A stretch of 64,000 bases of DNA, taken from assembly GCF_024223415.1 (NCBI RefSeq), contig NZ_CP100500.1. One strand, 5' to 3'. Of the stretch, positions 8,366 through 64,000 are shown piece after piece. The notes beneath the pieces were generated by a model. It was not told the DNA's origin. It saw only the letters and a list, made by a program, of their open reading frames with translations, and made no database searches. A program made the position numbers and the translations under genes. Position 1 is the first letter of the stretch; every line of letters begins with the position of its first letter. Source of the stretch: Escherichia coli. Lineage in GTDB: Bacteria > Pseudomonadota > Gammaproteobacteria > Enterobacterales > Enterobacteriaceae.

Positions 8366-8382
8366 CTGCACAACAGCGCTGT

Positions 8383-11097: not shown

Positions 11098-12755
11098 GAT
11101 GAGAGATCTCCGTTGATTTGGATTGACTTCACATCATTAATCACCGCGGTAAAACTTTACGGCATCATGTCATTAAGCAATGCTACAACTCTCTGATTAA
11201 GAGTGATTGAAACGGAACAAACCATCCCGGAACGAAAAGATAATCCTGCACACAGCAGCAAAACACGCAACAACAGCATGAATGGATTTAAAAACGACAT
11301 GGACGACGAGAAAAGCCTGAAGGGAAAAGGATCCACAGAACATTCGAACAAAACACCAGAAACGCAACCAGAACGCTTCCTGGCAATGCAAATCAACAAC
11401 AACGCCAAAACCTACAGCTTAATCACACAACTCAATCACGAATGCGAATGACACGTTTAAAACCTGTTTACAGATAACGCCGTAACACGATCATCCCCAT
11501 CACCATCAGAATCGATTTTCTCATCCCGAAAATGTTACGTTTCACTACTCACCATAAAAACGATTAACCATCGATAACGTAAATCTCATCTGAATCAAAA
11601 AACCAAAACCAATCATCACACTTTCGCAATGCAAGAAGAAAAACCACATCATGACGAAAACAATGACCTTACATGAAAAAGCAAAACGTCAGGAATCGTT
11701 AATGCCTCAATCTGATTGTTATCAAAACATCCAGAAAGTCGTTTAACAGAATCGTCGTAAGCACATCGAAAAGAACGTCAGATCACCTCAGGAAAGTTCG
11801 GGTTGATTTAGCGTAAAGATACTTTTCTCAGCTTAACGTCGAAACACAAACCAAAAACCACAAACAACCAAAGCTCAGGAAAGGTTAAACGTCACATCAG
11901 TAAAATCGAATAGCAGATTGATTGCTTAAACAGGAAGGATTGTTTTACAGCAGCATTAAACTGATTTAGTTAACGTAAAATCAGAACTGACAGGTTTACT
12001 AACTTGGATGTGTATCAGTTCAAAAATGTGTACAGCAATGCGTAATGAAACACATTTAAAGGAGATTAATGGGAAAAGTGTGTAAATGCGTAAACAGGCA
12101 CTAATGAATCACTGGAGGAATACATACAAAACGACTTAATGAAAACATAAAAGGACCTAATGGAAAAGGTGTATATAATACCATATCCGACATTCTCAAC
12201 ATCTTAAGACATCCATGCAGACTGAATGTTGGTTTCAGTTTTTCACGGTAAGCATGAATCTTTTCTGTTCAAAAGCAGAGCAGATTTACTCTGGAATTAT
12301 TTTTCTTACTCCGTATTCTGTACAGCAAAAACTTGTGCTAACTTTACAGCAAACCATCATAATCAGCGTCTGTAGTCCCATCGCTTTACCCCATGAAAGT
12401 GAATCCATATGATGTGAGAGAGATAAGTCATCGTATCCGGTAAACACTGCTTACTATAACATAAGATCATTCAGTCAGTTTTATCTCTGAACTGACGATT
12501 ATGGCATGCTCATTTATATGGCTCACAGAGGAGTGTTATTATCCGTAAGCTTTAATCATCAAATCACATGACCATACCAAACTGGCGCTATATCAGCTCA
12601 TTTGACGCTCATTCCCTTTAGATTTCTTTATGTGTTTTTTGTCGATAATTAAAATGTAATATAAATTTAATATTTTCACATCATAAACACCATTTAAAAC
12701 CATCATCCTGAACATCATACAACAATATATTTTTACTAAAGCATGAATTGTATAT

Positions 12756-13904
12756 TTATATTAATTCAGGAAAATTATCAGGATTCACCTTTAAATTCAA
12801 CTGAATGTTACACTTAATTTCACTCAGCAGTTCTTCATGCGTGGATTTTATTATCCCTTTATCATAATCTATAAATACACACATGTTTTTCATGAATTCA
12901 AACCCTTTTCCTGTATACAGTTTGATGAATGCCACAAGAGCAAACATTTCAAGATGCAGCCATAATGCCACGTGAGTTTTTCGCAAAGTATAAAAAATTG
13001 AATTCGCCACTTTTTTACTTATTGCTCTTTTGTACTGTGAGTGCGCCAGATTCAGTAGTGGCAATTCTCTCTCGATAAATGAAAGTGAAAAAGGCGGGTA
13101 AATTGATGTCGGAAATATTTCAGGTCTTATGATATTTTCGATTTCCACCATAAATCTATCCATAGAACGAAAATCATTTTCTTTTTTTATTCTGGTATAG
13201 AGACCGCCTTTATTCCTTACTGCGACTTTTTTTCGTGCTATCCCCCCCAACATTTCCTCTAATTGTTTATTTATCTTCGTATCATTAAATACAACCATTC
13301 TTCTTATCATCCTGGGAAGGATGATAATATCAGAGCTTGAATCACTTGAACGGCAATTATTATTGATCCATGCAACTTCAAGTTGAAGTATCGGAACATT
13401 AAATTCTCTGGGGTTAATAACTCTCTGATATTGTTTTTTGTATGCGTTTTCATTAAGATATTCTCTGCTGTAGAGAAACTTATAGCAATATAATCTGACA
13501 ATATCCTTTATGTAAGATTTAAATGAGTCACCTGTAACAGATATATTTTTTCTTCTCAGTAACTCCTGTGTATTGAGCCATTCCCGTGACCGGAGTACTC
13601 CATTATGAAGACTTTTTCTTACTTGCTTTGAATTGCGCAATTGATGTAATATTTTTGCGTCCTCAACAATTCTCTTTCCCGTTTGATTTCTTGCAGCATC
13701 TATTACTCTGTCAAATATCTCCCGGTCCAGACTTTTGTCATATTTACTGATTATACGACAAATATTCCTGACCCGACGGTTCTCTTTATTTCGTTTCCAT
13801 AACTGATAATGATCATCACATAACCTCAGGGCATTTGCCTCATCAAATTCTGAAACAGGATTGCTGCATTTTTTATTCCGACAGATACCTTTGTTTTTAG
13901 CCAT
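12756..13904 (-). CDS. hypothetical protein, orphan AT-rich island cargo gene, function unknown
   Basis: Uninterrupted 382-aa ORF, visibly AT-rich against the flanking genes; N-terminal Cys/His cluster (CRNKKCSN...LCDDHYQLW), K/R-rich, no long hydrophobic segments. No family recognised by me. Divergent from the YeeP-like gene across a 100-bp intergenic region. Confidence 0.6.
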   Translation of the reverse strand: MAKNKGICRNKKCSNPVSEFDEANALRLCDDHYQLWKRNKENRRVRNICRIISKYDKSLDREIFDRVIDAARNQTGKRIVEDAKILHQLRNSKQVRKSLHNGVLRSREWLNTQELLRRKNISVTGDSFKSYIKDIVRLYCYKFLYSREYLNENAYKKQYQRVINPREFNVPILQLEVAWINNNCRSSDSSSDIIILPRMIRRMVVFNDTKINKQLEEMLGGIARKKVAVRNKGGLYTRIKKENDFRSMDRFMVEIENIIRPEIFPTSIYPPFSLSFIERELPLLNLAHSQYKRAISKKVANSIFYTLRKTHVALWLHLEMFALVAFIKLYTGKGFEFMKNMCVFIDYDKGIIKSTHEELLSEIKCNIQLNLKVNPDNFPELI

Positions 13905-14004
13905 ACTCTTCTTCCCGTCAATGGAAAAATTTTCACGTCCATATTACCTGACTGATAGGCCGGATTAATGTGATCCGGTTCAGTGAAATCAACAGGATAA
14001 CGGT

Positions 14005-14889
14005 ATGTCATTCAGCCATTCTTCCCTCTCCGCACACGTAAAGTCACATCTGACCTTTCTTCCTGAAGAAATTCGCCAGAAAATCCTTGAACATCTTCGC
14101 AGCGTCATTCAGTACGAACCCGTTATTGGCATTATGGGTAAATCCGGTGCCGGAAAAAGCAGCCTGTGCAATGCCATTTTTCAGTCCCGTGTCTGCGCCA
14201 CGCATCCGCTGAACGGCTGCACCCGTCAGGCTCATCGTCTTACCTTTCAGCCCGGTGAACGAAGAATGACGCTGGTCGATCTGCCCGGCACTGGCGAAAC
14301 ACCACAGCATGATCAGGAATACCGGGCACTTTACAGTCAGTTACTGCCCGAACTGGATCTGATTATCTGGATCCTGCGGGCTGATGAACGTGCGTATGCT
14401 GCCGACATCGCCATGCATCAGTTTTTACTGAATGAAGGTGCCGATCCCTCGCGTTTTCTGTTTGTTCTCAGCCATGCCGATCGCATCCACCCGGCTGAAG
14501 AATGGAACAACCAGAGCAGCACGCCATCCCGTCAGCAGGAACTCTCACTGGCGACGGTGACAGCCCGGGTGGCAACCCTGTTCCCTTCATCATTTCCGGT
14601 ACTCCCCATAGCCGCCCCTGCCGGCTGGAATCTTCCGGCATTTGTGTCTCTGATGATCCACGCCCTGCCACCACAGGCAACCAGCGCGGTTTATTCGCAT
14701 ATCCGGAATGAAAAGCGCACTGCGCAGGATCAGCAACACGCACAGCAGGCTTTTGGTGACGCCATCGGCCAGAGTTTTGACGCTGCCATTGCCCGGTTCA
14801 GCTTTCCGGCCTGGATGCTGCAGCTTCTGCGCAAAGCCCGTGATCGCATTATCCGCCTGCTGATCACACTGTGGGATCGCCTGTTCTGA
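14005..14889 (+). CDS. YeeP/YfjP/YkfA-family GTPase
   Basis: 294-aa ORF with P-loop GIMGKSGAGKSSLCNAIF and DLPGTGE motif; typical first gene of the CP4-type conserved module. Confidence 0.8.
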   Translation: MSFSHSSLSAHVKSHLTFLPEEIRQKILEHLRSVIQYEPVIGIMGKSGAGKSSLCNAIFQSRVCATHPLNGCTRQAHRLTFQPGERRMTLVDLPGTGETPQHDQEYRALYSQLLPELDLIIWILRADERAYAADIAMHQFLLNEGADPSRFLFVLSHADRIHPAEEWNNQSSTPSRQQELSLATVTARVATLFPSSFPVLPIAAPAGWNLPAFVSLMIHALPPQATSAVYSHIRNEKRTAQDQQHAQQAFGDAIGQSFDAAIARFSFPAWMLQLLRKARDRIIRLLITLWDRLF

Positions 14890-15074
14890 ATGTCCCCGCT
14901 TTTTGACCGGCCCCGGCGATAACCAGGAAACGCATTTCCGGTTGCGTCACCACAATGCTGAAGGGCTTCGGTAAACCCTCATTCATTTCATCCATCAGGC
15001 CGCGTCTTCTCCGTGAGACGCGGCTTTTTCATTGATTACGTCATTCAGTCTTAACCACTGATAAGGAGCAAAGT

Positions 15075-15893
15075 ATGCGATTAGCCAGTCGTTTTGGTTA
15101 TGCGAACCAGATACGCCGTGACCGTCCGCTGACCCGTGAAGAGCTGATGCACCATGTGCCCGGGATTTTCGGGGAAGATAAACACACCTCCCGGAGCCGG
15201 AACTATACATACATCCCCACCATCACCGTGCTGGAAAGCCTGCAGCGGGAAGGCTTTCAGCCATTCTTCGCCTGCCAGACCCGCGTACGTGACCCGGGCC
15301 GCCGGGGGTATACCAAACACATGCTGCGTCTGCGCCGTGACGGGGAGATAAACGGACAACATGTCCCTGAAATTATTCTGCTCAACTCTCATGACGGTAC
15401 CTCCAGCTACCAGATGCTGCCGGGTTACTTCAGGTTCGTCTGCCAGAACGGATGCGTCTGCGGTCAGTCTCTGGGGGAAGTGCGTGTTCCGCACCGGGGA
15501 AATGTGGTGGACAGAGTCATTGAAGGGGCTTACGAGGTGGTGGGCGTGTTTGACCGGATAGAGGAGAAGCGTGATGCCATGCAGTCGCTGGTCCTGCCGC
15601 CACCGGCACGCCAGGCGCTGGCACAGGCGGCACTGACTTACCGTTATGGTGACGAACATCAGCCCGTCACCACCGCCGACATTCTGACGCCGCGACGCCG
15701 GGAGGATTACGGTAAGGACCTGTGGAGCGCATATCAGACCATCCAGGAGAATATGCTGAAAGGCGGGATTTCCGGTCGCAGTGCAAAAGGAAAACGTATC
15801 CATACCCGGGCCATTCACAGCATTGATACCGACATTAAGCTCAATCGCGCATTGTGGGTGATGGCAGAAACGATGCTGGAGAGCCTGCGCTGA
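15075..15893 (+). CDS. DUF932-family protein (YfjQ/YafZ-like)
   Basis: 272-aa ORF closely resembling remembered YfjQ/YafZ sequences (MRLASRFGY...ILLNSHDGTSSYQ...). Confidence 0.8.
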   Translation: MRLASRFGYANQIRRDRPLTREELMHHVPGIFGEDKHTSRSRNYTYIPTITVLESLQREGFQPFFACQTRVRDPGRRGYTKHMLRLRRDGEINGQHVPEIILLNSHDGTSSYQMLPGYFRFVCQNGCVCGQSLGEVRVPHRGNVVDRVIEGAYEVVGVFDRIEEKRDAMQSLVLPPPARQALAQAALTYRYGDEHQPVTTADILTPRRREDYGKDLWSAYQTIQENMLKGGISGRSAKGKRIHTRAIHSIDTDIKLNRALWVMAETMLESLR

Positions 15894-15974
15894 TGCCGTT
15901 TCCCTGAGTGAGGGAATCATTCAGCTTTCGTTCCTGAAAAACACACATTTATTTGTTATTTAAGGAGTTATCTC

Positions 15975-16454
15975 ATGAAAACCGTTTCTCAGAATACCCC
16001 CACAATTTATTCAGCTACAACACCAGAGAATAATCCGCCTCAGTTGGTTGCCAGCCTCGTCCCTGATGAACAGCGCATCAGCTTCTGGCCGCAGCACTTT
16101 GGCCTCATTCCACAGTGGGTGGCCCTGGAGCCCCGTGTCTTCGGCTGGATGGACCGTCTGTGTGAAGACTACTGCGGTGGTATCTGGAATCTGTACACCC
16201 TGAACAACGGCGGGGCATTTATGGCACCCGAACCGGATGACGATGATGACGAAACATGGGTACTGTTCAATGCCATGAACGGTAACCGCGCTGAAATGAG
16301 TCCGGAAGCTGCCGGCATTGCTGCCTGTCTGATGACGTACAGTCATCACGCCTGTCGTACGGAGTGTTATGCCATGACGGTCCATTATTACCGGCTGCGG
16401 GATTACGCCCTGCAGCATCCGGAATGCAGCGCCATTATGCGCATCATCGACTGA
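15975..16454 (+). CDS. antirestriction protein, KlcA/ArdB-like (YfjX/YafX family)
   Basis: 159-aa ORF with an acidic stretch (PEPDDDDDE), position and sequence typical of the island antirestriction proteins. Confidence 0.75.
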   Translation: MKTVSQNTPTIYSATTPENNPPQLVASLVPDEQRISFWPQHFGLIPQWVALEPRVFGWMDRLCEDYCGGIWNLYTLNNGGAFMAPEPDDDDDETWVLFNAMNGNRAEMSPEAAGIAACLMTYSHHACRTECYAMTVHYYRLRDYALQHPECSAIMRIID

Positions 16455-16946
16455 ATGGAGGCAGGGACAATGCAGCAGCTTTCCTTTCTGCCCGGAGAGA
16501 TGACGCCCGGCGAGCGCAGTCTCATTCTGCGGGCCCTGAAAACTCTGGACCGCCATCTTCATGAACCCGGCGTGGCCTTCACCTCCACCCGTGCGGCACG
16601 GGAATGGCTGATTCTGAACATGGCGGGACTGGAGCGTGAAGAATTCCGGGTGCTGTATCTGAATAACCAGAATCAACTGATTGCCGGTGAAACCCTCTTC
16701 ACCGGCACCATCAACCGCACGGAAGTCCATCCCCGGGAAGTGATTAAACGCGCCCTGTACCACAATGCCGCTGCCGTGGTGCTGGCGCACAATCACCCGT
16801 CCGGTGAAGTCACACCCAGCAAGGCAGACCGCCTTATCACGGAACGTCTGGTACAGGCACTGGGCCTGGTGGATATCCGGGTGCCGGACCATCTGATAGT
16901 CGGTGGCAACCAGGTTTTCTCCTTTGCCGAACATGGTCTGCTTTAA
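16455..16946 (+). CDS. RadC-like JAB-domain protein (YeeS/YfjY/YkfG family)
   Basis: JAB/MPN motif HNHPSGEVTPSKADRLITERL; start may be the internal Met (MQQLSF..., 16470). Confidence 0.8.
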   Translation: MEAGTMQQLSFLPGEMTPGERSLILRALKTLDRHLHEPGVAFTSTRAAREWLILNMAGLEREEFRVLYLNNQNQLIAGETLFTGTINRTEVHPREVIKRALYHNAAAVVLAHNHPSGEVTPSKADRLITERLVQALGLVDIRVPDHLIVGGNQVFSFAEHGLL

Positions 16947-17008
16947 CCCGTCACAACCACATCACGCTTGTTTGCACTTTTATCTTCTGTCTTCAGAGGT
17001 ATCACACT

Positions 17009-17230
17009 ATGAAAATCATCACCCGTGGTGAAGCCATGCGTATTCACCAACAACATCCGGCATCCCGTCTTTTTCCTTTCTGTACCGGCAAATACCGCTG
17101 GCACGGCAGTGCTGAGGCGTATACCGGTCGTGAAGTGCAGGATATTCCCGGTGTGCTGGCCGTGTTTGCTGAACGCCGTAAGGACAGTTTTGGCCCGTAT
17201 GTCCGGCTGATGAACGTCACTCTGAACTGA
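17009..17230 (+). CDS. yeeT: DUF987 protein (YeeT/YkfH-like)
   Basis: 73-aa ORF, near-identical to remembered YeeT (MKIITRGEAMRIHQQHP...). Confidence 0.8.
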   Translation: MKIITRGEAMRIHQQHPASRLFPFCTGKYRWHGSAEAYTGREVQDIPGVLAVFAERRKDSFGPYVRLMNVTLN

Positions 17231-17248
17231 GTCAGTAAGGGCACTCTG

Positions 17249-17880
17249 ATGAGCAGAATTATCACCATCACAGTGTATACGCTGGATGAACTTTCCTGCC
17301 CGGCACGGGAAAAAGCCCGCGACGGGTACCGTCAGCATCATGCTGACAGCAACTGGTATGAAAACGTGTATGAGGACGTCAGGGAGGTCTGTGGCATTTT
17401 CGGAATTGACCTCTGCCAGCGTGTTATCCGTCTCAGCAACGGCAGGTTTATGGAAGAGCCGTGCATCTGGTTCAGCGGATTCTGCAGCCAGGGACGGAGC
17501 CTGTTTTGAAGGACGCTGGCACTGGCAGTCAGCAACAACCAGGAGAGTCCGGGAGTATGCCCCGCAGAACCGTGAGCTTCATCGTATCGCGGATGCCCTG
17601 CAGGCGGTGCAGAAACGTAACTTCTGGCAACTGCAGGCTGAAATCCACCACCGGGGACGTTACTGCCATCCGTTATCACTGTTACCCGGAACAGTCCGAC
17701 TGGTCAGGCTATGACAGCCGATGCGGAAGCCGCTGTCAGCGAAGCCCTGCGCGACCTGGCCTTCTGGCTGTACCGTCAACTGGAAAACGAGTACGACCAG
17801 ATGACCTCAGACGCCGCTGTGGATGAGGCCATTCTCATCAATGCATACATCTTCACCGAAACCGGTCAGCGCACCGGCTG
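17249..17880 (+). pseudogene. island ORF split across frames, family unknown
   Basis: Protein-like translation runs in one frame (17249-17509), shifts to a second (to 17714), then returns to the first (ATG 17711 to stop 17878-17880, ...AVSEALRDLAFWLYRQLENEYDQ...). Two frame changes would be needed for a single product. Confidence 0.45.
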
Positions 17881-17930
17881 ACCTGTCATCGTTAAACCAT
17901 TCTTAACCACTTTTCAGAGAGGATTTTATC

Positions 17931-18299
17931 GTGTCAGACACACTCTCCGGGATAACTCATCCCGACGACAATCACGACCGCCCCTGGTGGGGGCTTCCCT
18001 GCACAGTGAGGCCCTGTTTTGGCGCCCGTCTGGTGCAGGAGGGTAACCGCCTGCATTACCTTGCCGACCGCGCCGGCATCAGAGGCCGGTTCAGCGATGC
18101 GGATGCATACCATCTGGACCAGGCCTTTCCGCTGCTGATGAAACAACTGGAACTCATGCTCACCAGCGGTGAACTGAATCCCCGCCATCAGCATACCGTC
18201 ACGCTGTATGCAAAAGGGCTGACCTGCGAAGCCGACACCCTCGGCAGTTGTGGTTACGTTTATCTGGCTGTTTATCCGACGCCCGAAACGAAAAAGTAA
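17931..18299 (+). CDS. cbeA: type IV toxin-antitoxin antitoxin CbeA (YeeU family)
   Basis: 122-aa ORF near-identical to remembered CbeA/YeeU (MSDTL...NHDRPWWGLPCTV...). Confidence 0.85.
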   Translation: MSDTLSGITHPDDNHDRPWWGLPCTVRPCFGARLVQEGNRLHYLADRAGIRGRFSDADAYHLDQAFPLLMKQLELMLTSGELNPRHQHTVTLYAKGLTCEADTLGSCGYVYLAVYPTPETKK

Positions 18300-18389
18300 A
18301 CCACCGGAATAACCTTCTGCTCCGGCCAGGTGTTTTCACCACGCCACTCTCCCCATAATTTAATCTCTCATATCAGGAAAATCTTCAGT

Positions 18390-18800
18390 ATGAAATTATT
18401 ACCCGACACACATGTACGGGAGGCATCGTGCTGCCCGTCTCCCGTCACCATCTGGCAGACACTGCTCATCCGTCTGCTGGACCAGCACTATGGCCTCACA
18501 CTGAATGACACACCGTTCGCTGATGAACGTGTGATTGAGCAGCATATTGAGGCCGGCATTTCACTGTGCGATGCGGTGAACTTTCTCGTTGAAAAATACG
18601 CACTGGTACGTACCGACCAGCCGGGATTCAGCGCAGGAGCCCCGTCGCAGTTAATCAACAGCATCGATATTCTCCGGGCCCGCCGGGCAACAGGCCTGAT
18701 GACACGTAATAACTACAGAATGGTAAATAACATTACCCTGGGTAGCATCCGGGGGCGAAACGATGAAACTTTCCCTGACGCTGGAAGCCGACAGCGTTAA
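18390..18800 (+). CDS. cbtA: type IV toxin-antitoxin toxin CbtA (YeeV family), divergent extended C-terminus
   Basis: From the internal Met MKLLPD..., strong match to CbtA through ...MVNNITLG, then a different 18-residue tail that overlaps the next ORF by 38 nt. Confidence 0.75.
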
Positions 18801-19185
18801 CGTACAGGCGCTGAACATGGGGCGAATTGTCGTTGACATTGATGGTGTTGAGCTCACTGAACTGATTAACAAGGTCGCTGAAAACGGTTATTCACTCCGC
18901 GTGGTGGATGAACGTGACGCTACCGAAACACCGGCGACTTCTGCCAGCTCTCATCAGTTGCCGGAAGACAATACAGTGATACAGAGCGTGATGCCATTAA
19001 CCACTGAAACAGCGCTGGATATCCTCATTGCGTGGCTGCAGGACAATATCGACTGCGGGTCCGGAATTATTTTCGACAACGATGAGGATAAAACGGATTC
19101 GGCAGCACTGCTGCCCTGTATTGAACAGGCCAGGGAGGATATCCGTACCCTGCACCAACTGCAACTTCTGCACCAGAACCGGTGA
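18763..19185 (+). CDS. YeeW-like protein
   Basis: 140-aa ORF immediately after cbtA, as in CP4-type islands; identity is from recollection of yeeW-like genes, moderate certainty. Confidence 0.5.
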
Positions 19186-19269
19186 ATCTCACTCACCAGA
19201 CTTCATTCTCCTGACGCCAGCCTGAACAGAGCTGGCGTTTTCGTTTATAAACAGAAAGGAAACCCCATA

Positions 19270-19833
19270 ATGTCATATATCACAATCCCCCACCCGAACG
19301 CGGTCAACGGACATACAGCCGTTATCTGTTCCACAAGTATCCGCCACATTCTGGCTGTACGAAAGAGTACACTGCTGCAAATCGACACACTTATCCGGCA
19401 ACTGGCTGAAATATCAGCAATGACAGAAAGTATTGGCGGTAAAGCCGCCCCGGGCTGGGCCATGAAACAGGATTTTCGCTGCGGCTGCTGGCTGATGGAG
19501 AAACCGGAAACCGCAATGAAAGCCATCACACGCAATCTCGATCGCGAAATCTGGCGTGACCTGATGCAACGTTCAGGGATGCTTTCCTTAATGGATGCAC
19601 AGGCCCGTGATACATGGTACCGGTCACTGGAGTACGATAATTTTCCGGAAATCAGCGAAGCGAACATTCTGAGCACATTTAAACAACTGCACCAGAATAA
19701 GGATGAGCTGTTTGAGCGGGGGGAGATCAACGTCTTCAGAGGACTGAGCCGGGATTACAAAACCAGGTCGCCCTGCAAATTTAGTAATAAAATTATCATC
19801 AACAACCTGGTGAGGTGGGACCAGTGGGGATAA
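19270..19833 (+). CDS. hypothetical protein, terminal ORF of the island (possibly DUF4942-like)
   Basis: 187-aa ORF, last gene before the island boundary; family assignment uncertain. Confidence 0.45.
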   Translation: MSYITIPHPNAVNGHTAVICSTSIRHILAVRKSTLLQIDTLIRQLAEISAMTESIGGKAAPGWAMKQDFRCGCWLMEKPETAMKAITRNLDREIWRDLMQRSGMLSLMDAQARDTWYRSLEYDNFPEISEANILSTFKQLHQNKDELFERGEINVFRGLSRDYKTRSPCKFSNKIIINNLVRWDQWG

Positions 19834-20028
19834 TGAGATGGTTCCCCCCCACCTTAACAGCAGTACGCTGTTAAGGTGAATCCCTTTATGCTTCCCCCCT
19901 TTCACCTCATCTTCCAACACCCGGGTTTGATTCCTTTTTCACAGCAAAAGGGACTGAGGGTACAAAAGAGGGTATATTTTTCACCAAACCAAACAAAACA
20001 AACAAATATCAACATGATAGAAGAAATC

Positions 20029-52367: not shown

Positions 52368-53246
52368 TTACACCAAATTTACAGAGAAGATTTCCTCGAG
52401 CATTGCCCCCGCCAGACGCTGCGCTGAACAGAGTCGTGGCATCCCCAGCGCGACAGTTTGCCAGCGTTGGGTCACTGACCAGCAAACGGGTTGTTTATCT
52501 GCCGTGGACCACTTTCCCAGCCAACTTAAAAAATCAGCATGATCCCCGCCCGTCGGAACGGTCGAAGAGGCAAACCACTGATGGTAATAGTGACGCGTGG
52601 TCGGGGCCGCATTGATACTCTCTGCCAGATGTTGTGTCGCTTTCACGCGCAAATCACCCAGCAACAACGCCACCGCTTGCGGGCTTCCCAGACGGCAGGC
52701 ATCGCCAAATGCACCCCAACGCAACTCTTCGAGAACGATAAAACAGCGCCCAGGCAACGACCAGGCGTTATACGCCCCAGCACGCCAGCGGGTAAAAATT
52801 TGCTCGCTCTGTTCACCTGCCTGCACCAGTAGGCCCCGTTGCGTTAACGCCTTTTCCTTCCAGCGACAACGGGCTGAAAACCACTCATACAAGGCGGCAA
52901 TTTGCTGGGGGAGCTCCGGGAAAGCAGAGTGCTGGCGGTGATCCATTTTTTGCAGCAGCGCCAGATGTTGCGCGATCTGCATCAGTGCCAGATGACCGGG
53001 ATCCAGCATCGACGCCAGTTTTTCCACCAATGTCAAACGCAGGCTAAGCGGCGCATTTAACATTCCGCCGTTCGTCCATGTCTGAAGCTGCACGCGCGCA
53101 AGAAGTTCCTGCATCAGTCGTTCACGAAACTGCTGCTGATGGGCTTGTGGAAGGCGGGCATCATCGCCCTGCGCCAGATCCACTAAAAAGCGCGGATGAA
53201 CCGACTCCAGCACGCGACCGGGGCCGTCCAGTAACGTCTTGGTCAA
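52368..53246 (-). CDS. yjcZ: YjcZ, partner of CrfC
   Basis: 292-aa ORF overlapping the crfC stop by 4 nt; conserved crfC-yjcZ arrangement. Confidence 0.85.
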   Translation of the reverse strand: MTKTLLDGPGRVLESVHPRFLVDLAQGDDARLPQAHQQQFRERLMQELLARVQLQTWTNGGMLNAPLSLRLTLVEKLASMLDPGHLALMQIAQHLALLQKMDHRQHSAFPELPQQIAALYEWFSARCRWKEKALTQRGLLVQAGEQSEQIFTRWRAGAYNAWSLPGRCFIVLEELRWGAFGDACRLGSPQAVALLLGDLRVKATQHLAESINAAPTTRHYYHQWFASSTVPTGGDHADFLSWLGKWSTADKQPVCWSVTQRWQTVALGMPRLCSAQRLAGAMLEEIFSVNLV

Positions 53247-55471
53247 TATCGTTCTGCCGTGAAAAGTGTTTGAATATCATCGCGTAACAGCTGGGCGTCG
53301 GTGTAAATCCAGCCGTGAGTCATCACAGTCTGCTGCAATTGCTGCTGCATCAGCCTGACCACCGATTCATTTTGTTGACGCAGAGCCAGACTTTCGCGTA
53401 AACGCGTCTGTAATTCCGTCAAACATGAAGCGAACTCAGCGAAAAAAGTATTCATGCCTGCCGTAACAGATTCATCGACCTGCTCTGCCAGAACTTTAGC
53501 CATTTGTTGGCAATAGAGATCGACTTCTGCGCTTAATGCTCGTTGCAACACACTGTAATCAACCGTTTCTGTCGGGGATTTCTCATTCCCCCGTCCCCAG
53601 TCGGGCTGATTCAACCAGCGCGAAAAAGTCTCACGCACAACGCCTAAACGCGTGCTCTGCTCGTCCGTTGCTTCCTGGCGCGAAATGACTTCACTGAACA
53701 GCTGGCGAGTGTTGAAGTGGGGAACTACGCCGTGAAAAACAGGAAAATGAAACCCAAGACGAAACCCTGACTCGCTCAATTCCATTTTGACTTGTTGCTC
53801 AATGGGGCGAATAACATCGGTTAACACCCGGCAAAGGGTGGATTCAAGCTCGGCAAAACGCAGCGTAAAGTCGCGACTGATGGTGTTCTGCGCCGTCTGT
53901 AACAGTGTCTCACAGCGGGTACGAATCTCGCTTAATGACCCCGAATCATCCTGAAACAACGCGGCTAACTGCGCATTCAGCGCATCTTGCTGTTGACGCA
54001 GAAAGTGGTTGGCGGAGGTCAGGGCCAGCTCGATTTCATGTTTAATCTCGCCGCTCACCTGCGCCTGATTGAGTTGCAATAGCTGCAAACTTTCTTCGAC
54101 CTGATGGATATTTTGCCGCAATTGTTCACAAGCGACGTTTAACCCGTGCGCACGAAAATCCAGGTATTCCCGCGCCTGCTGCGCGTAATTCAACAGTTTA
54201 TGCGCGGCAGATCGCAGAGCATACAACGAGGCGTTAGCGTAAGCGGCATGAAGCAACGCCTGAATTGGCTGGGCGAACAGCGAATCTTCCCACAACTGAT
54301 CGGCAGCATGACGAATATGTTCGAGGTCCGCCAGATCGGCATGACGCCAGCGCCTGCCGAGCGCGGCATGGGCAAAATCTTCCACCCAGCGTTGTTGCTC
54401 TGGCGGTGGTAACTTACCGTTGTTGGCTAACTCATGGCGCGCCCGATTCGCCAGGTAGCCCCACATCGACGACACCGGAAATATCTGCTGTGGCGTAATA
54501 CAGCCTTTCATCAGCGTCCCGGAAATCAGTGCCCGCACCTGGTCGGCGTCGTCACTGTTACGATCCTGTTGATCGAACTTATTGACCAGCACATACAGCG
54601 GCACCGATTGCCCCACCGCCAAAATCGCCTCACGGACCTCTTCATCGGAGATCGATTTCAGTTGCGTATAATCCAGCACCGCCAGTACCGCCGAGGCGCG
54701 TGCCAGCTGCTGGTTAAGCATTTTTTGCAGATGCGGTTGCCCGGCTTCATTTGGCCCGGGGGTATCCAGTAACGTCAACTGACCGGGATAACTCTCCAGC
54801 CCCGCCAGATGGACAAACTCCACTTCAATCACGGGAATATGCTCAATGGCGGCGTAAGCAGAAAAAGGAAAATCGACGTCCAGCGCCTTCGCCAGTCGCA
54901 CCAAATCATTCAAACTTTTCAGACAATGAAAAATAGGCTGGGCACCCAGATAATATTTTTCGAAAGCGACGCCATTTTCGATCCGCTGCATAAGCGCACG
55001 CATATCTTTATCTATTTCCAGCACATCGGTCAGATGCTTAATATCGCAATCACGCAGGCGCTGTTGTAATTTTTGAATTAAACAATCGATTGGCGCGACA
55101 TGTGAAAAATGCAGTACCGGTTCTTTTTGCCCGGGTGTATGGCGAATAAGCGTCGGCAGCGCAGTCATTGGGCGATTGCGATTAGGCAGTACCTCCGTAC
55201 CAACAATGGCATTAATGGTGGTTGATTTCCCTGCTTTCATGGTACCGACAATCGCCAGCACCATTTCCAGTCGGGAAATTTTACGCAACTCATTATTCAG
55301 CATCGCGTGACGTTCGGCGATATTAGGCTGACTCCAGGGTAAAGCCCGTTGTGGCGCATCGTCTCCGGGTACAGAGAGAGGCATTTTTTCCAGTAACTGC
55401 AACTGTTGGCGAGAAAGCTGTAACAGGCGTTCAGCCTCCTGACTTAACTCATACAGGGTCTGTGTGTACAT
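53243..55471 (-). CDS. crfC: dynamin-like GTPase CrfC (YjdA)
   Basis: 742-aa ORF matching CrfC/YjdA, with dynamin-type GTPase N-terminal region. Confidence 0.9.
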   Translation of the reverse strand: MYTQTLYELSQEAERLLQLSRQQLQLLEKMPLSVPGDDAPQRALPWSQPNIAERHAMLNNELRKISRLEMVLAIVGTMKAGKSTTINAIVGTEVLPNRNRPMTALPTLIRHTPGQKEPVLHFSHVAPIDCLIQKLQQRLRDCDIKHLTDVLEIDKDMRALMQRIENGVAFEKYYLGAQPIFHCLKSLNDLVRLAKALDVDFPFSAYAAIEHIPVIEVEFVHLAGLESYPGQLTLLDTPGPNEAGQPHLQKMLNQQLARASAVLAVLDYTQLKSISDEEVREAILAVGQSVPLYVLVNKFDQQDRNSDDADQVRALISGTLMKGCITPQQIFPVSSMWGYLANRARHELANNGKLPPPEQQRWVEDFAHAALGRRWRHADLADLEHIRHAADQLWEDSLFAQPIQALLHAAYANASLYALRSAAHKLLNYAQQAREYLDFRAHGLNVACEQLRQNIHQVEESLQLLQLNQAQVSGEIKHEIELALTSANHFLRQQQDALNAQLAALFQDDSGSLSEIRTRCETLLQTAQNTISRDFTLRFAELESTLCRVLTDVIRPIEQQVKMELSESGFRLGFHFPVFHGVVPHFNTRQLFSEVISRQEATDEQSTRLGVVRETFSRWLNQPDWGRGNEKSPTETVDYSVLQRALSAEVDLYCQQMAKVLAEQVDESVTAGMNTFFAEFASCLTELQTRLRESLALRQQNESVVRLMQQQLQQTVMTHGWIYTDAQLLRDDIQTLFTAERY

Positions 55472-55872
55472 AGAAAATTCTTCCTTAAAGCAAATTTTAT
55501 TACTTTTATTTAGCCAGATTGTTTTTGAGTTCTGTTTTCGGCTTTTATAATTACTGCAAGAAATAATTTTATATTTAGAGTGTTGTTTTTTATTAGAATA
55601 AATAACATCTTCCGATACGTTTAAAACGTCAGAAAGATAAAAATATCATGTGAATAAAAAAAAGAACAAGTAGAGCATTAACCTTATCTTAAATAATAAA
55701 TGGAGGCAAAAAGATTATTTTCTTTTTGCGTTTCCTTTCAAATGAAAACGATCGTCGTCTAAAATCAGCAGTACCCCCGACAAACTCAGGGATTTTGTGT
55801 ATAATTGCGGCCTTTTTCGGCAATCTGCCGTTTTTTGGCGCTTTTGCCCTGCTGACTTTTGAGGAAATCCAC

Positions 55873-56208
55873 ATGTCATTACCACACTGCCCAAAATGCA
55901 ACTCCGAATACACCTACGAAGATAACGGCATGTACATCTGCCCGGAATGTGCCTACGAATGGAACGACGCAGAACCTGCACAGGAAAGCGACGAGCTGAT
56001 CGTTAAAGATGCTAACGGCAATCTGCTGGCTGACGGCGACAGCGTTACCATCATTAAAGATCTGAAGGTGAAAGGTAGCTCTTCGATGCTGAAAATTGGC
56101 ACCAAAGTGAAAAACATCCGCCTGGTTGAAGGCGACCATAACATCGATTGCAAAATCGACGGTTTTGGTCCGATGAAACTGAAATCTGAGTTTGTGAAAA
56201 AGAACTGA
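55873..56208 (+). CDS. phnA: PhnA (YjdM), zinc-ribbon protein
   Basis: Start at [13 protein letters not shown] (111 aa); two CxxC motifs. Confidence 0.9.
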
Positions 56209-56221
56209 TTGTATTGTGATC

Positions 56222-56287
56222 GGTAAGCCGGATAAGGCGCTCGCGCCGCATCCGGCAACGGTGCCAGATGCCTGATGCGACGCTTGC
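56222..56287. repeat. REP palindromic unit abutting the IS left end
   Basis: gccggataaggcgctcgcgccgcatccggc and gcctgatgcgacgc, typical REP sequences. Confidence 0.65.
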
Positions 56288-57146
<859 letters not shown>

Positions 57147-57150
<4 letters not shown>

Positions 57151-57677
57151 GCTCTGGATGACTTTCGTTTTTTCTCCAGCTCCTGGCGCTTTTTTTCCAG
57201 GAGATGCTCCTGCATGGCTTTCAGATATGCATTTTCTGCGCGAAGATAACGCAGCTCATTCTTCATCTCTTCCGGCGTCATGTTTGCCTCGTTTTCATGG
57301 GTATCATCAGAACGGGTCATGCTTTTCTCCTTCCTGCGCCTGATAAAGGCCTCATTACCAGATTTGCGGTAGCCTTTTATCCAGTTTTTAACCATGTTGT
57401 GGCTGGGAATGTTAAACCGGGCAGCTACCCGGGGTAGAGACTCAGAATGCCCGAGAGCATAAAGAACCACGCAAAGTTTATCTTCAGGAGAATAGCTACG
57501 CTTGTGTCTGCAATCCAGTGCCTGAGGACCGTGAAGAAGAAAAAGATTAATCCAGTGTGAGAGGCTGGTGTGAGAAAGTTGAAAGAGTTTTGCCGTAGAA
57601 ATGATGCCTGCATGACCGGCCAGGTAATGATTTACAGCGGCAAGTTTTACTTCAAATGAATGTTTCATAAACTGCAC
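57147..57677 (-). CDS. IS3-family transposase OrfA (HTH, leucine-zipper-like C-terminus)
   Basis: 176-aa ORF with HTH and a K/E/L-rich C-terminal region; A-rich slippery stretches near the 3' end. Confidence 0.8.
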
Positions 57678-57719
57678 CTTCAGATGTCAGATTATGTCCA
57701 ACATTTGGGGTGCAGTTCA

Positions 57720-57850
57720 TGGTGCGTCTTATCAGGCCTACGTCAGACAGCGCAATAGCCTGATTTAGCGTGATTTTGTAGGTCGGATAAGGCGTTTACG
57801 CCGCATCCGACATCAACGCCTGATGCGACGCTTAACGCGTCTTATCAGGC
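57720..57850. repeat. REP/BIME cluster on the right of the IS, downstream of yjcO
   Basis: Several palindromic units (gcgtcttatcaggcctac; aggtcggataaggcgtttacgccgcatccgaca; gcctgatgcgacgcttaacgcgtcttatcaggcctac). Confidence 0.65.
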
Positions 57851-57855
57851 CTACC

Positions 57856-58545
57856 TTAACCGTTAGTTAATTTTTCAAACTCTTCACACCCGGTATCAAA
57901 CCCTTCCATACAGCTCAGGTTCAACCAGTGCAGCGCCTTTTGCTTGTTCTTCTCGATAAAACCTTCTTCACCGTTTAAGAACATCATTCCCGCCCAGTAC
58001 TCGGAATAACCGGTTCGGGAAATTGCAGAGCTGCGTTTGAAATACCAGGTTGCCTTGTCATCGTCGGCCTTAATGCCCACGCCGTTGGCGTAAATCAAAC
58101 CAAGCAGCATTTGGGCATCGACGGCAGAGTCGTTCTCCAGATCTTCCGAGGCGTTTTCTAACAGCGAAATCGCCTTTGGATAATCCGGTTTACCCGCTTG
58201 AGTATTTACCAGAATATGCGCCAGCGTTACTTCACCTTCTTTACTGCCCGCTTGCGCCGCTTTCTCTGCAAGAACTTTTGCTTGTGGATAGTCCAGACTG
58301 ACCGGATTGGTGATTTTGATCTACGCCAACAGCGCGCAGGCATCAGCATCACCGCTGTCGGCGGCTTTCTGTGCCCAATATTCGGCTTTGCTCAAATCGC
58401 CGGAGCTAAACCAGCTGTCGGCAAGAAAATATTGTGCGCGTCGGTCCCCGGCCTCTGCTGCCTTTAAATACTGGCTGCCAGGCTCGGAGTCGTTGGCGTG
58501 GGCAAAGAATGTCAAAAACAACATCAATGCGATAATTTTTTTCAT
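57856..58545 (-). pseudogene. yjcO: yjcO (Sel1-repeat protein) with an in-frame amber stop at 58320-58322
   Basis: N-terminal ORF 58321-58545 and C-terminal ORF 57856-58110 are in the same frame; the intervening sequence reads ...ACALLA-TAG-IKITNPVSLDY where remembered YjcO has Gln (ACALLAQIKITNPV). Confidence 0.7.
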
Positions 58546-58638
58546 TTTGATAATACGATTGGGTAGGGAGTAACCAGTATAAAGAGTTCGAATGGATAAA
58601 AAAACAGCCTCCGAAAGGAGGCTGTAGAAAGGACTGTA

Positions 58639-60786
58639 TTACGCCAGTGCCGCTTCGCGCAGGCGAGTTTTCAACTTGTTGTACTCGTCAATCACGTACT
58701 GCTCGGCGGCGCGCTGATCGGCGATCGGCTCGACGCGCACGGCGCAGTATTTGTATTCCGGCGTTTTCGTAATCGGGCTTAAGTTTTCGGTAACCAGCTC
58801 GTTACAGGCACCAATCCACCACTGGTAGGTCATATAAATCGCCCCTTTGTTCGGACGATCGCTGACCTGCGCACGGGTGATAATTTTGCCTTTACGCGAG
58901 TGCACCCAAACCAATGCCTCATCTTCAATACCCAGACGTTTGGCGTCTTCGGTATTGATTTGTGCGTAGCCAGGTTCATCCGCCAGCGCCGCCAGTGCCG
59001 CACAGTTACCGGTCATCGAACGGCAAGAGTAGTGACCAACTTCACGCACCGTTGACAGTACCATCGGGTACTCGTCGGTGAGTTTGTCGATTGGCGCTAC
59101 CCAGTCGCAGGTGAAGAACTGCGCCAGACCGTTCGGGGTATCAAACTTCTCTTTAAACAGATAAGAAGTCCCCTGATCGGCATCTGAAGTATCGCGGCAA
59201 GGCCACTGAATGAAGCCCAGTTCGCCCATTTTCTCGTAAGTCGCACCGTAGAAATCCGGGCACAGATGACGCAACTCATCCCAGATCTCCTGGGTGTTGT
59301 TGTAGTGCATCGGATAACCCATACGGGTGGCGATTTCACTGATGATTTGCCAGTCCGTTTTCAGATCCCATTTCGGTTCAACTGCTTTGAAGAAACGCTG
59401 GAAGCCACGGTCAGCCGCAGTAAACACGCCTTCATGCTCGCCCCACGACGTTGACGGTAAAATAACATCCGCCGCCGACGCGGTTTTGGTCATAAAGATG
59501 TCCTGAACGATAACCAGTTCCAGATCTTCAAAGGCTTTACGTACTGCCGACAGCTCCGCGTCAGTTTGTAGCGGATCTTCGCCCATAATGTACGCGGCAC
59601 GCACTTCGCCATGCGCTGCGCGGTGCGGCAGCTCGCTGATGCGATAACCGGTATGAGCAGGCAGGCTTTCCACGCCCCAGGCTTTGGCGAATTTCTCGCG
59701 GTTAGCCGGATCTTTCACGTACTGGTATCCCGGATACGTATCCGGCAGCGCGCCCATATCGCAGGCACCCTGCACGTTGTTCTGACCACGAACCGGGTTT
59801 ACACCCGCATGCGGCTTACCGAGGTTACCGGTCAGCATCGCGAGGCTGGTCAGAGAACGCACGGTTTCCACGCCCTGGTAGAACTGGGTTACACCCATGC
59901 CCCACAGGATGGCGGCGCTTTTCGCCTGGGCATACATCCGTGCCGCCTGACGAATCTCACTGGCGCTGACGCCGGTGATATCTTCAACCGACTCCGGCGT
60001 GTAGCCTTCAACGATTTTACGATACTCTTCAAAGCCTTCTGTACGTGAAGCGACGAACGCTTTGTCGTACAGATTTTCTTCAATAATGACATGGCCCATC
60101 GCATTCAACAGCGCGATGTTCGAGCCGTTTTTCAGTGCAATGTGCATGTCAGCAATGCGCGCGGTTTCAATTTTGCGCGGATCGCAGACGATAATTTTCG
60201 CCCCGTTACGTTTAGCGTTAATTACGTGATTCGCCACGATTGGGTGGGAATCCGCCGGGTTGTACCCGAAAACGAACACTAAATCGGTATTATCAATTTC
60301 GTTAATAGCATTGCTCATTGCGCCATTACCGACCGATTGGTGCAGACCTGCAACCGATGGGCCGTGTCAGACACGAGCGCAGCAGTCAACGTTATTGGTA
60401 CCAATAACGGCGCGCGCAAATTTTTGCATTACATAGTTGGTTTCGTTACCCGTACCACGCGAGGAGCCGGTCGTCTGGATGGCATCCGGACCGTACTTCT
60501 CTTTGATGGCGCTCAGGCGCTCGGCAACGTAATTCAGTGCCTCATCCCAGGAAACAGGTTCGAGTTTGCCGCCACGCTGGCGACGGATCATGGGGGTTTT
60601 CAGGCGCGGGGTCAGGATCTGGGTATCGTTAATGAAATCCCAGCCATAATAACCCTTCAGACACAGGGTACCCTGGTTGGTTTTCCCCTGCGCTGCCTCC
60701 GCCCGGACGATTTTGCCGTTATCGACGACCAGGTTGATTTTGCAACCTGATGCGCAATAGGGGCAAACCGTGACGACTTTTTTCAT
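58639..60786 (-). CDS. fdhF: formate dehydrogenase H, selenocysteine-containing (UGA-Sec at 60367-60369)
   Basis: ORFs 60367-60786 and 58639-60318 are in the same frame separated only by TGA; the junction reads ...VDCCARV-U-HGPSVAGLHQSVGNG as in FdhF Sec140. Total 715 codons. Confidence 0.9.
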
Positions 60787-60983
60787 CGGTCTCGCTCCAG
60801 TTAATCAAATCACGCATACGCGCTCTCGACTACAGTATGCATCTTTTATGCCACATTTTATTTGGGGTCATTCCCTGATATTACGGGCACTATTTATTCA
60901 AAACTCTGACGAAAAACAGGCTGTCGTCAGTTTTGACGTGACGAAACGAAATACCGCGTGACGGCCATCACGCGGCAGACATT

Positions 60984-62450
60984 TTATTTTTTCTCGACGA
61001 CGGGAGCCGCCTGATACCCGCCGCCCAGCGATTTCATCAACTGAATGCTTTGGATCACCCGGCGGCTGTCCAGCATCAGTAATGACATCTCTTCGGCAAG
61101 CACCGGCAACCGGGCTTCGGTAGCCTGTAAGCGGCTGGTTAAGCCGCGCTGATAGGCGGCCTCGGCAGCGCGCTGGGTGAAGCGCGTTGCTTCCACGCGT
61201 TCAGCCTGCATCTCTCGCTCGTCGTTGAGCGTTTGCAGACGCGTGCCGTTGACGGCAACGTCACGCACCGCGTTCAGTACTGACTGGTTGTAACGTTCAA
61301 TCATCATGTTGCTGGCGGCGCGCGTGCCTTCGAGATTGGCATTCAACCGTCCACCGTCAAACAGCGGCAATTTCAGACCCGGGATAAAGTTGAACTGGCG
61401 ACTGGTTTTTTTGAATAAGGTATCCAGGTGGATGGCATCAAGGCCGAAAAACGCTTTGATATCAAAGCTCGGGTAGAACAGCGCCCGCGCGGAATCCACC
61501 TGATCTAATGACGCCTGAACATACCAGCGCATGGCTTGCAGATCCGGGCGTCTGGCGAGCAACTCATAAGAGAGCGTCGCCGGAATGCCGGTCTGTACTT
61601 GCGGTAATGCCACCGCTTTGATCTCCGGCATATCGCTGGCTCCCGCGCCAATCAATGCACGCAGGGATTCTCGCGTTTCGGTGATTTGCCCTTTAACGGC
61701 AGCAATTTGTTTATCGACCGCCAGAATCTGTGCCCGCGCGCCGTGGAAAGGCACTTGCGCTTCCAGACCGTGCGCCACTTTACTTTGGTGCGCTTTCACC
61801 GCGTAATCAATCACATCGCGAGTTTGTTCTAACAGATCGAGCATCTGATAGCTGGCCTGCATACTGTAATAAAGCTGCGCTACGCCCGTGGTCAGCGATA
61901 GCTCTACTGCTGCGGTTTCTGCCAGCGCGGCATTATGCGCGCCAATGGCGGCGGCAACCGCTGAGCGATGCACACCCCACAAATCAAGATCCAGTCCGGC
62001 AAACAAACCTACTGTGGCTTCCGTATAGTACGGCCCGTCCATACCCAGTGCTGGCGCATCCATCGCATAAGGGCTTAAAAAGCCGTTCGCCGAGACGCGT
62101 TGGCGGTTGAGCATCCCTAACGCTGCGACCTGTAATTGTGAACCGGCATCTAACAAATCGGCCTGGGACTGCGCTTTTTCTTCCCGCAGTTTCGCTTCGG
62201 CGAGGGTGTGTGAACCACTTAGCGTCCGTTGGATCAGCGCATCCAGCTGCGGGTCATTGAGTTGTTTCCACCACTGCGCCTGCGGCCAGCCGGAGCTGGC
62301 AAGATGAATATCATCGGCCAGTTTGATTTGTTCCGGTTTGAGCTGTTGATTAGGCGCAGAATCCTTGCGTACCAGGGCACAGCCGGAAATCAGCGTCGTG
62401 CTGCCGAGAATGCTGCACAACAGCAGACGTGAAAGTTGACGATTGATCAT
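60984..62450 (-). CDS. mdtP: outer-membrane efflux factor MdtP (YjcP)
   Basis: 488-aa OMF-family lipoprotein (lipobox LISGC) matching MdtP; overlaps the mdtO stop by 4 nt. Confidence 0.9.
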   Translation of the reverse strand: MINRQLSRLLLCSILGSTTLISGCALVRKDSAPNQQLKPEQIKLADDIHLASSGWPQAQWWKQLNDPQLDALIQRTLSGSHTLAEAKLREEKAQSQADLLDAGSQLQVAALGMLNRQRVSANGFLSPYAMDAPALGMDGPYYTEATVGLFAGLDLDLWGVHRSAVAAAIGAHNAALAETAAVELSLTTGVAQLYYSMQASYQMLDLLEQTRDVIDYAVKAHQSKVAHGLEAQVPFHGARAQILAVDKQIAAVKGQITETRESLRALIGAGASDMPEIKAVALPQVQTGIPATLSYELLARRPDLQAMRWYVQASLDQVDSARALFYPSFDIKAFFGLDAIHLDTLFKKTSRQFNFIPGLKLPLFDGGRLNANLEGTRAASNMMIERYNQSVLNAVRDVAVNGTRLQTLNDEREMQAERVEATRFTQRAAEAAYQRGLTSRLQATEARLPVLAEEMSLLMLDSRRVIQSIQLMKSLGGGYQAAPVVEKK

Positions 62451-64000
62451 TGCGTGGCTCCTTGTGCCTGTTCCGTGGCGGGCGTTAATGCCGGGGCTGT
62501 CCAGTCTGGCAAGCGGGCGAAAAGCTGGCAGACGTGTTGCTCCTGTTTTAATAAGGTGGGCAGGATGGCCTGCGAGGCGGGTGTCTCTTCAAGCGTTATT
62601 TGAGGAGAACGGCTGAGTGCGGTTGCCAGACCGGCAGCGTATTTTTCCAGAGCGTCGGCAAACTGACCTGCTCTGTCCGGCTGTAGTGCGTTATCCAGCG
62701 CCTGCGCCGAGTTCCAGGTGGCATCCCAGGCGTGAAGAAGATCGCGGCCCTGACGAATAACCGTTTGCGAACGTTCAATCAGTAAGGCGCGTTCTTCGCT
62801 GTCCAGTTGACGCTCCAGCGCCACGCGTTGGCACATCTCTTCACAGGCATTAAACGCCGCATGCAGACCTATACGAATTTGCAGATAAGTGCGCAGAGCC
62901 GTGACTTCCTGCTGGCGTGGGATCCGCATTACTTTACTTAGCATACCCAGCGCACCGGCCAGTTTTTGCGGCAGCGTGCGCGCTTCACTTTCAGGCCAGA
63001 CAAAGGTGTAAATCACCGCAGACACCACGGTACCAATGATGATACCCAGGGCGCGATCGCGAATTTCCACCAGGTCGTACACCGGACCAAAAACGTTTTC
63101 GAGCGTGGCGAGCGCGAAGGTGACCACCATCTGTGTGCCGATATAAGAAGAGCGTTCAGAGCTGGTGGCAATCCATGCGCCCAACAGGAAAATCGGTGCC
63201 AGCACAAACAGCAATTCGACAATATTGTCCAGCCAGGGCATGACCAGTAGCGTGAATAACAGCGCCAGAATCGCGCCGCAAAAGGCCCCGCCAAAACGCA
63301 GCACCATCTTCTGGTACGATGAACCGACATTCGGATTAGCGACGATCACGCAGGTCAGCATACAGGTGTGAATGCCTTCCCAGTCCACGCCGCTGTAGAA
63401 GGTGTAACAGATCAAACAGGCGAGCAGCGTTTTTACCGCGTAGCGCATATAGTCTGGATTGGTAAAAGCATCGGCGGCCATTGATGGCGGTTTGGCTGCG
63501 GGCGTTGGCGGCGTATTCGGGTCCATCTGACCCAGTTGTAACAACGTCTGGCAGATATTCTCCAGGTTACATTCCCGTGCCGCCATCGCTTCACTTTCAC
63601 TGATCCGCCAGTCGCTTTGCCAGCACTGACCTTCGGTAATGGCATGCTGCAGCTTGTTGATTTCTGAAGCTAATTTTTGTCGGAATTCAATAATTGCCTG
63701 AGAATCAGCAAAAGAGGTGGGATCGTAGCGATTCAGTGTCGAGTAAATGTAGGTTACCGTTGCCACGCAGCTTTGCCACCATGCACTCTGGGTTCGCCAG
63801 TTGGCATCGTCCGCGAGGCAAAAGACATTGAGTTTTTGCAGCGCCAGCGCCTCTCTTTCAATCCGCGTTTCGGGTAGCGGTGCGAGGCTGTCCGTCAGGT
63901 GGCTAATGGCATCATCAAGCCGATCATTAAGCACCTGATGCATTTGCGTAATGGCACGACTGGGAAACCACAGTACGCCGATTAACGTCATTAATAACGT
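62447..64000 (-). CDS. mdtO: efflux system membrane protein MdtO (YjcQ), 5' end beyond the window
   Basis: Frame open to the window edge; matches the C-terminal region of MdtO; conserved mdtO-mdtP order. Confidence 0.85.
   Translation of the reverse strand, partial: TLLMTLIGVLWFPSRAITQMHQVLNDRLDDAISHLTDSLAPLPETRIEREALALQKLNVFCLADDANWRTQSAWWQSCVATVTYIYSTLNRYDPTSFADSQAIIEFRQKLASEINKLQHAITEGQCWQSDWRISESEAMAARECNLENICQTLLQLGQMDPNTPPTPAAKPPSMAADAFTNPDYMRYAVKTLLACLICYTFYSGVDWEGIHTCMLTCVIVANPNVGSSYQKMVLRFGGAFCGAILALLFTLLVMPWLDNIVELLFVLAPIFLLGAWIATSSERSSYIGTQMVVTFALATLENVFGPVYDLVEIRDRALGIIIGTVVSAVIYTFVWPESEARTLPQKLAGALGMLSKVMRIPRQQEVTALRTYLQIRIGLHAAFNACEEMCQRVALERQLDSEERALLIERSQTVIRQGRDLLHAWDATWNSAQALDNALQPDRAGQFADALEKYAAGLATALSRSPQITLEETPASQAILPTLLKQEQHVCQLFARLPDWTAPALTPATEQAQGATQ

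Follow-up and report, generated by a model that had tools for sequence, protein, structure and literature searches.

Amber mutations at glutamine codons are well known in Escherichia coli, where the amber sites of lacI are classical changes of CAG to TAG and coincide with hot spots at Dcm-dependent 5-methylcytosines. An in-frame stop codon might also belong to the normal reading of a gene, as in fdhF, in which TGA is the selenocysteine codon of formate dehydrogenase H. Imperfect inverted repeats provide another described source of recurrent change, since template switching in quasipalindromes creates mutational hot spots in E. coli (PMC7202029). Finally, dispensable E. coli genes are found as lineage-specific nonsense and frameshift pseudogenes.

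The locus described here is yjcO, a gene of the Sel1-repeat family to which no function is assigned in the literature. In the E. coli stretch of 64,000 nucleotides that was analysed (the window) its reading frame is interrupted by an amber codon. Comparison with other genomes indicates that yjcO is very probably a genuine, recent and lineage-specific nonsense pseudogene in this strain.

Structure of the interrupted gene

The yjcO locus forms one continuous frame on the minus strand (Table 1), and its translation contains a sole internal stop, located between ...DADACALLA and IKITNPVSLDYP... (IKITNPV...). In a 761-base alignment with the yjcO locus of O157:H7 PV15-279, the sole mismatch is the base at window position 58323, where coding C is replaced by T. 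The change, C223T in gene numbering, turns the Gln75 codon CAG into amber TAG and is a G:C to A:T transition. When C was put back at 58323, the resulting 229-residue protein was identical to YjcO of K-12 (UniRef representative YJCO_ECOLI), a sequence that is present on at least 1000 contigs. The orthology to yjcO is supported by 99.9% identity to the annotated gene, as well as by synteny with fdhF-mdtP-mdtO upstream, as in O157:H7 and O78 strain 3.

The first-pass annotation, which was made from the letters of the window, had noticed that the two pieces of yjcO lie in the same frame, had assumed an ancestral CAG (Gln) on the basis of the YjcO sequence, and had predicted a product of 74 residues. 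The translation bears out the common frame, and the O157:H7 alignment and the restored protein confirm the change of CAG to TAG. The assumed YjcO sequence was correct, as the restored protein matches YJCO_ECOLI exactly, and the predicted product corresponds to the 74-aa ORF (58321..58545) of the mechanical ORF list, which also contains an in-frame 84-aa ORF (57856..58110). The codon itself had been placed rightly on the minus strand but at 58320-58322, one base off its actual position.

The base that follows the amber codon is A, and a GATC site overlaps it at 58318-58321. The first possible restart past the stop is ATG146, which opens the 84-aa ORF and would give a protein without a signal peptide; 668 blocks of public assemblies contain this C-terminal ORF. 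The ORF list also splits fdhF, by an in-frame TGA at 60367-60369 (minus strand). An Rfam match to SECIS_2 (60320-60374, 87 bits) lies immediately downstream of this TGA, which is therefore the selenocysteine codon already known from formate dehydrogenase H.

Table 1. Features of the yjcO region, in window coordinates
Feature	Position	Strand	Basis and remarks
yjcO, probable pseudogene	57856..58545	minus	229 codons and natural TAA stop; translation, identity to annotated yjcO
Premature amber TAG, codon 75	58321..58323	minus	mutated base 58323, gene nt 223
Residual N-terminal frame, 74 codons	58324..58545	minus	signal peptide MKKIIALMLFLTFFAHA and about one Sel1/TPR-like repeat
yjcO codons 76-229 and stop	57856..58320	minus	in frame, otherwise unmutated; cut off from the yjcO start
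Inverted-repeat arm 1	58314..58332	minus	gene nt 214-232; holds the mutated base
Inverted-repeat arm 2	58082..58100	minus	gene nt 446-464; 213 nt from arm 1
Intrinsic terminator hairpin after fdhF	58604..58625	minus	terminator scan; 9-bp stem, then T run
REP/BIME between yjcO and IS1397	57781..57851	plus	Rfam naRNA4 (REP-derived nucleoid-associated RNA), 75 bits (gathering score 59.5)
IS1397 (IS3 family, 1432 bp)	56288..57719	minus	annotation in matching genomes; terminal inverted repeats found

Distribution of the amber allele

Of the 5,426 complete E. coli genomes in RefSeq, 5,418 contain yjcO. The region is intact in about 5,416 of them, with one to three mismatches to a 71-base probe centred on the TAG, and none matches this probe exactly, so that the TAG allele is absent from all of these genomes. 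Against this background the internal stop is a real departure and does not reflect a chance break of an ORF. The complete genomes nearest to the window, O78 strain 3, GPEC1446, NCTC10444, NCTC9112 and KV7, match positions 57742-64000 at 11553 bits, which over 6259 bases corresponds to one mismatch, and S51 and SCU-316 come next over the same interval with two or three mismatches. TAG is present in none of these seven near-identical genomes. The comparison with related strains that the first-pass annotation had suggested as a check has thus returned CAG in the nearest complete genomes, one base apart in 6.26 kb.

Over the backbone (19920-52687) the window is 99.94% identical to O78 strain 3, indicating that its source is a close relative of the O78 strain 3 group, and the yjcO stop is one of very few differences. 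The left third of the window (1-19900) forms a CP4-like island, which carries antirestriction, CbtA/CbeA-type and DUF genes and shares only 83-96% identity with its O78 strain 3 counterpart, in contrast to the backbone that begins at 19920.

Beyond the complete genomes, the allele was located by an exact look-up of the 74-aa product, half of whose hits came from contigs that carry the wild-type CAG and simply stop at nt 222-224 (L007-L011, L014-L020); these were excluded as evidence of the allele. TAG is present in GCA_900482235.1 (L003), whose contig matches the window without a single difference over 6431 bases and reaches 150 bases into the IS, and in the Logan assemblies SRR31140989 (L005) and SRR36098277 (L006), which differ from the window by two bases and one base, respectively, in 6175. 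With the source included, the allele therefore occurs in four data sets of one lineage, the three others being independent short-read assemblies. The truncated 74-aa product had already been deposited (SRA14585.1), and no published description of the yjcO Q75* allele was found. The presence of TAG in four data sets of this lineage and its absence from the nearest relatives indicate that it is inherited and is not an assembly error. It is highly likely, judging from this distribution, that the mutation arose in one E. coli lineage close to O78 strain 3, NCTC9112 and KV7.

In the lineage of O78 strain 3 (L012, 17231-26372) the place of the als operon beside yjcS is taken by another sugar-utilisation cluster, whose genes include those for a response regulator and a hybrid histidine kinase. 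This replacement explains the response-regulator gene found by yjcS in L003 (1-238), L005 and L006.

IS1397 and the adjoining inversion

The IS1397 element sits in a REP sequence, 136 bp downstream of the yjcO stop. The BIME between gltP and yjcO is a described element (PMC3333891), and palindromic units of this kind are known targets of IS1397 (PMC3333891 and references therein). O78 strain 3 has two inverted copies of IS1397, one between yjdM and yjdN and the other between yjcO and gltP; the region between them is un-inverted, and yjcO is intact. Window positions 52687-57741 are colinear with the first of these copies and its left flank, positions 56268-64000 align in reverse complement with the second copy and the sequence flanking it, and both alignments overlap over the IS of the window. 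Since the flanks align to two inverted copies, the window shows one junction of a ~32-kb inversion (yjdN-phn-...-mdtNOP-fdhF-yjcO), which, as the alignments indicate, arose by recombination between the two IS1397 copies.

Recurrence of C223T and the inverted repeat

The same substitution was also found on two other haplotype backgrounds, making three in all. One of them is represented by GCA_029947465.1 and GCA_029904165.1 (L002 and L004), which show 74 differences from the window over 6268 bases, one of them at nt 217, at a distance of six bases from the mutated base; the complete genomes nearest to L002 (BE2-5, 65COLEC and others) carry CAG and are one base apart in 6446. In the other, GCA_007648385.1 (L013), yjcO itself shows 17 differences and is separated from fdhF by an ABC-transporter island; the complete genome nearest to L013, EC12, carries CAG and is about three bases apart in 6622, as estimated from the bit score. 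The background differences nearest the site are nt 217 (6 bases off) and nt 201 and 273 (22 to 50 bases off). Recombination was considered as the source of the shared TAG and is unlikely, because the exchanged tracts would need to be shorter than ~70-160 bases; with flanking differences only 6 to 50 bases away, independent mutation is the likelier explanation.

All six TAG-bearing loci examined keep G225, and a TAA allele, as expected from co-conversion of nt 225, was not seen in any of them. In JGI metagenome contigs, TGGCGTARATCAAAATCACCAATCC (TAG or TAA) was likewise looked for and not found.

The mutated base lies within the strongest imperfect inverted repeat of yjcO, whose arms match at 15 of 19 positions in the wild type and at 16 of 19 in the mutant, arm 2 specifying T at nt 223. 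Of the 2070 single-base changes possible in the gene, C223T is one of only two for which an inverted partner that matches 15 or more of 18 flanking bases supplies the new base; only 9% of shuffled sequences have any such templated site.

Other nonsense products accessible by transition were counted on contigs (97 aa on three, 115 aa on one; no contig of the collection has the products of 44, 56 or 58 aa), although these counts give no clean comparison of rates. The 87-aa product occurs on 110 contigs, but the named NCBI records among them are annotated 'partial' and represent contig ends. In a control set, four of nine arbitrary transitions were on record, suggesting that the sampling is so deep that three occurrences of one change fall within chance. 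Calibrated from these control transitions, the probability of two further hits at a given site is ~0.1-0.26.

Codon 75 is, in addition, a place where assemblies break. In many unrelated assemblies (L007-L011, L014-L020, L032-L041), which include Logan k31, MEGAHIT k119-141 and one NCBI draft, contigs with the wild-type CAG have their last base at nt 222-224 or their first at nt 224-226 (window 58320-58324), and they do so much more frequently here than at the codons nearby. By length of product, 74 aa is represented by 83 contigs, 73 and 75 aa by none, 72 aa by 11 and 76 aa by 17. Codon 75 showed no polymorphism in the complete genomes, and a common synonymous CAG/CAA polymorphism, considered as the cause of the breaks, was not found on the T217 background, where the CAA 71-mer gave no exact match. 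The GGC motif and inverted repeats have been named as causes of Illumina sequence-specific errors (PMC3141275). After GGC and the local 6-bp inverted repeat, such errors could give rise to false branches in the assembly graph at this codon; real minority variants may be an alternative cause.

Predicted product and dispensability of yjcO

Restored YjcO matches the Pfam Sel1 family at 72 bits, above the threshold, whereas the 74-aa fragment reaches 18.8 bits, below the cut-off of 30.7, and has one repeat left. The N-terminus is a Sec-type signal peptide with a cleavage site placed by eye. Ribosomes would terminate at UAG75 and release a precursor of 74 residues, of which signal-peptide cleavage would leave ~57, and this fragment, with one sub-threshold Sel1 repeat of the array, would probably have lost its function completely or nearly so. 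Termination at UAG75 with loss of function is the most likely outcome that can be predicted from the sequence. Near-cognate read-through of UAG by tRNA-Gln could still give a trace of wild-type protein.

The terminator after fdhF, together with the convergent orientation of gltP, the gene beyond yjcO in relatives, makes yjcO monocistronic, so that the stop has no downstream gene on which polarity could act. As the last gene before a convergent neighbour, yjcO is expected to cause no polar effect when interrupted.

Many other lesions of yjcO are present in public assemblies, as is seen from the 668 blocks that contain the 84-aa C-terminal ORF. A -1 deletion at nt 393 is common to five loci (L021 and L026-L029), and a +1 insertion at nt 411 was found in another (L022). 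In the long-term evolution experiment (LTEE), a 57.5-kb deletion fusing truncated yjcO to lysU swept in one lineage. Taken together, the many lesions and the LTEE deletion show that loss of yjcO is common and evidently tolerated, and that the gene is evidently dispensable and not essential. Among the remaining interrupted loci, one has an engineered TetR/GFP cassette upstream of yjcO nt 320 (L024), and three (L023, L025, L030) come from assemblies riddled with indels, where fdhF and gltP are split too.

Alternative explanations of the stop

It is conceivable that the TAG is a sequencing or assembly error, for example a systematic miscall beside the Dam site GATC or after GGC and an inverted repeat. 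GATC does overlap the TAG codon, the site follows GGC (nt 219-221) and the local 6-bp inverted repeat, both being triggers of Illumina errors (PMC3141275), and contig breaks cluster at codon 75 in many assemblies. However, the same base is present in the three independently sequenced assemblies of the lineage (L003, L005 and L006), and is absent from all seven near-identical and all ~5,416 complete genomes; an error would not follow phylogeny in such a manner. Phasing-type miscalls, moreover, would be expected to yield G or A at the site, not T, and an error is highly improbable. Only a little less improbable is a stop that is read through by design or suppression, with full-length YjcO still made owing to a supE-like Gln-inserting suppressor (glnV/glnX) or to programmed recoding. 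Such a suppressor would restore the exact wild-type YjcO, UAG followed by A is generally not the strongest termination context, and the remainder of the ORF is still intact; yet the locus has no other differences from its relatives, so that a mutation as young as this one accounts for the undamaged frame downstream. The TAG is also unconserved among the ~5,416 genomes, and an Rfam search gave no match to a recoding RNA family at 58200-58400 at the gathering threshold, while the same search found SECIS_2 in fdhF, a positive control 2 kb away. There is no tRNA gene within the 64-kb window. Natural isolates rarely carry suppressors, and E. coli is not known to have a pyrrolysine system. The first-pass annotation had further pointed out that yjcO lies next to the IS and the synteny break, and the short distance between the element and the gene end, with the inversion junction at the same place, might suggest that the stop was caused by, or selected with, the insertion of IS1397 and the inversion. 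This is extremely unlikely, as O78 strain 3 and its relatives carry IS1397 at the same place beside an intact yjcO, L002 has the TAG allele with normal yjcO-gltP synteny and without the IS, and the element is outside and downstream of the coding region, lying in neither the gene nor its promoter. The proximity is real but coincidental, and IS1397 with the inversion on the one hand and the amber mutation on the other are best regarded as independent events.

The recurrence of C223T raises another possibility, namely that the site is a mutational hot spot at which template switching between the two arms copies T into nt 223, so that the amber allele arises repeatedly. The identical change on three backgrounds with recombination unlikely, the distance of one base in more than 6 kb to the nearest CAG genome on two of them (about three for L013 and EC12), and the position of C223T among so few templated changes, at a type of site that most shuffled sequences lack, are all consistent with it. 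Nevertheless, the analysis of the repeat was post hoc, the arms are much farther apart than in classical quasipalindromes, and neither the six TAG loci nor the JGI scan yielded TAA, the latter being without TAG as well. The reciprocal change A455G (Y152C), found on 3 contigs as compared with 1-11 for eight control Tyr-to-Cys variants, is not enriched, and with sampling this deep two further hits at one site have the calibrated probability given above. We regard the hot spot as rather unlikely. It is similarly doubtful that codon 75 is naturally hypermutable via template switching, which would place the same amber in unrelated lineages and perhaps produce minority variants within samples, explaining the contig breaks. 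The preferred explanation is a recent nonsense mutation that was inherited within one lineage.

With this amber allele, one E. coli clone would be naturally null or nearly null for yjcO. The allele is useful as a lineage marker, and it adds further evidence that the Sel1-repeat protein YjcO is dispensable. It is otherwise an ordinary event, and the allele was already present in public data. If homoplasy analysis were to confirm the recurrence of C223T at the best-templated position, yjcO would offer an example from nature of quasipalindrome mutagenesis acting over a long range.

Comparison with known systems

With the classical ambers of lacI, the yjcO stop shares a C to T change at a Gln codon that makes UAG, and a Gln-inserting suppressor would restore the wild type in both. 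A Dcm 5-methylcytosine hot spot was considered as its origin and rejected: unlike the lacI hot spots, the mutated C of yjcO is in GGCGCAGATC, outside any CCWGG site, so deamination of 5-methylcytosine does not apply. The UGA selenocysteine codon of fdhF resembles the yjcO stop in being an in-frame stop in a conserved ORF that splits the ORF list; however, the fdhF stop has SECIS_2 (87 bits) and a full-length annotation in relatives, whereas the yjcO stop is without such an element and is absent from the ~5,416 complete genomes. The E. coli quasipalindrome hot spots of template switching (PMC7202029) are alike in their imperfect inverted repeat, in a base specified by the partner arm and in arms that the mutation makes more similar. 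The yjcO case differs from them in arms 213 nt apart, in showing no co-conversion, in a reciprocal change that is not enriched and in a recurrence that does not exceed the calibrated background. Lineage-specific nonsense and frameshift pseudogenes of dispensable E. coli genes, other yjcO lesions included, likewise have a single point lesion in a syntenic orthologue within one clone. In comparison with those other yjcO lesions (-1 at nt 393, +1 at nt 411), the present allele differs only in the position of the lesion, being Q75* produced by a transition.
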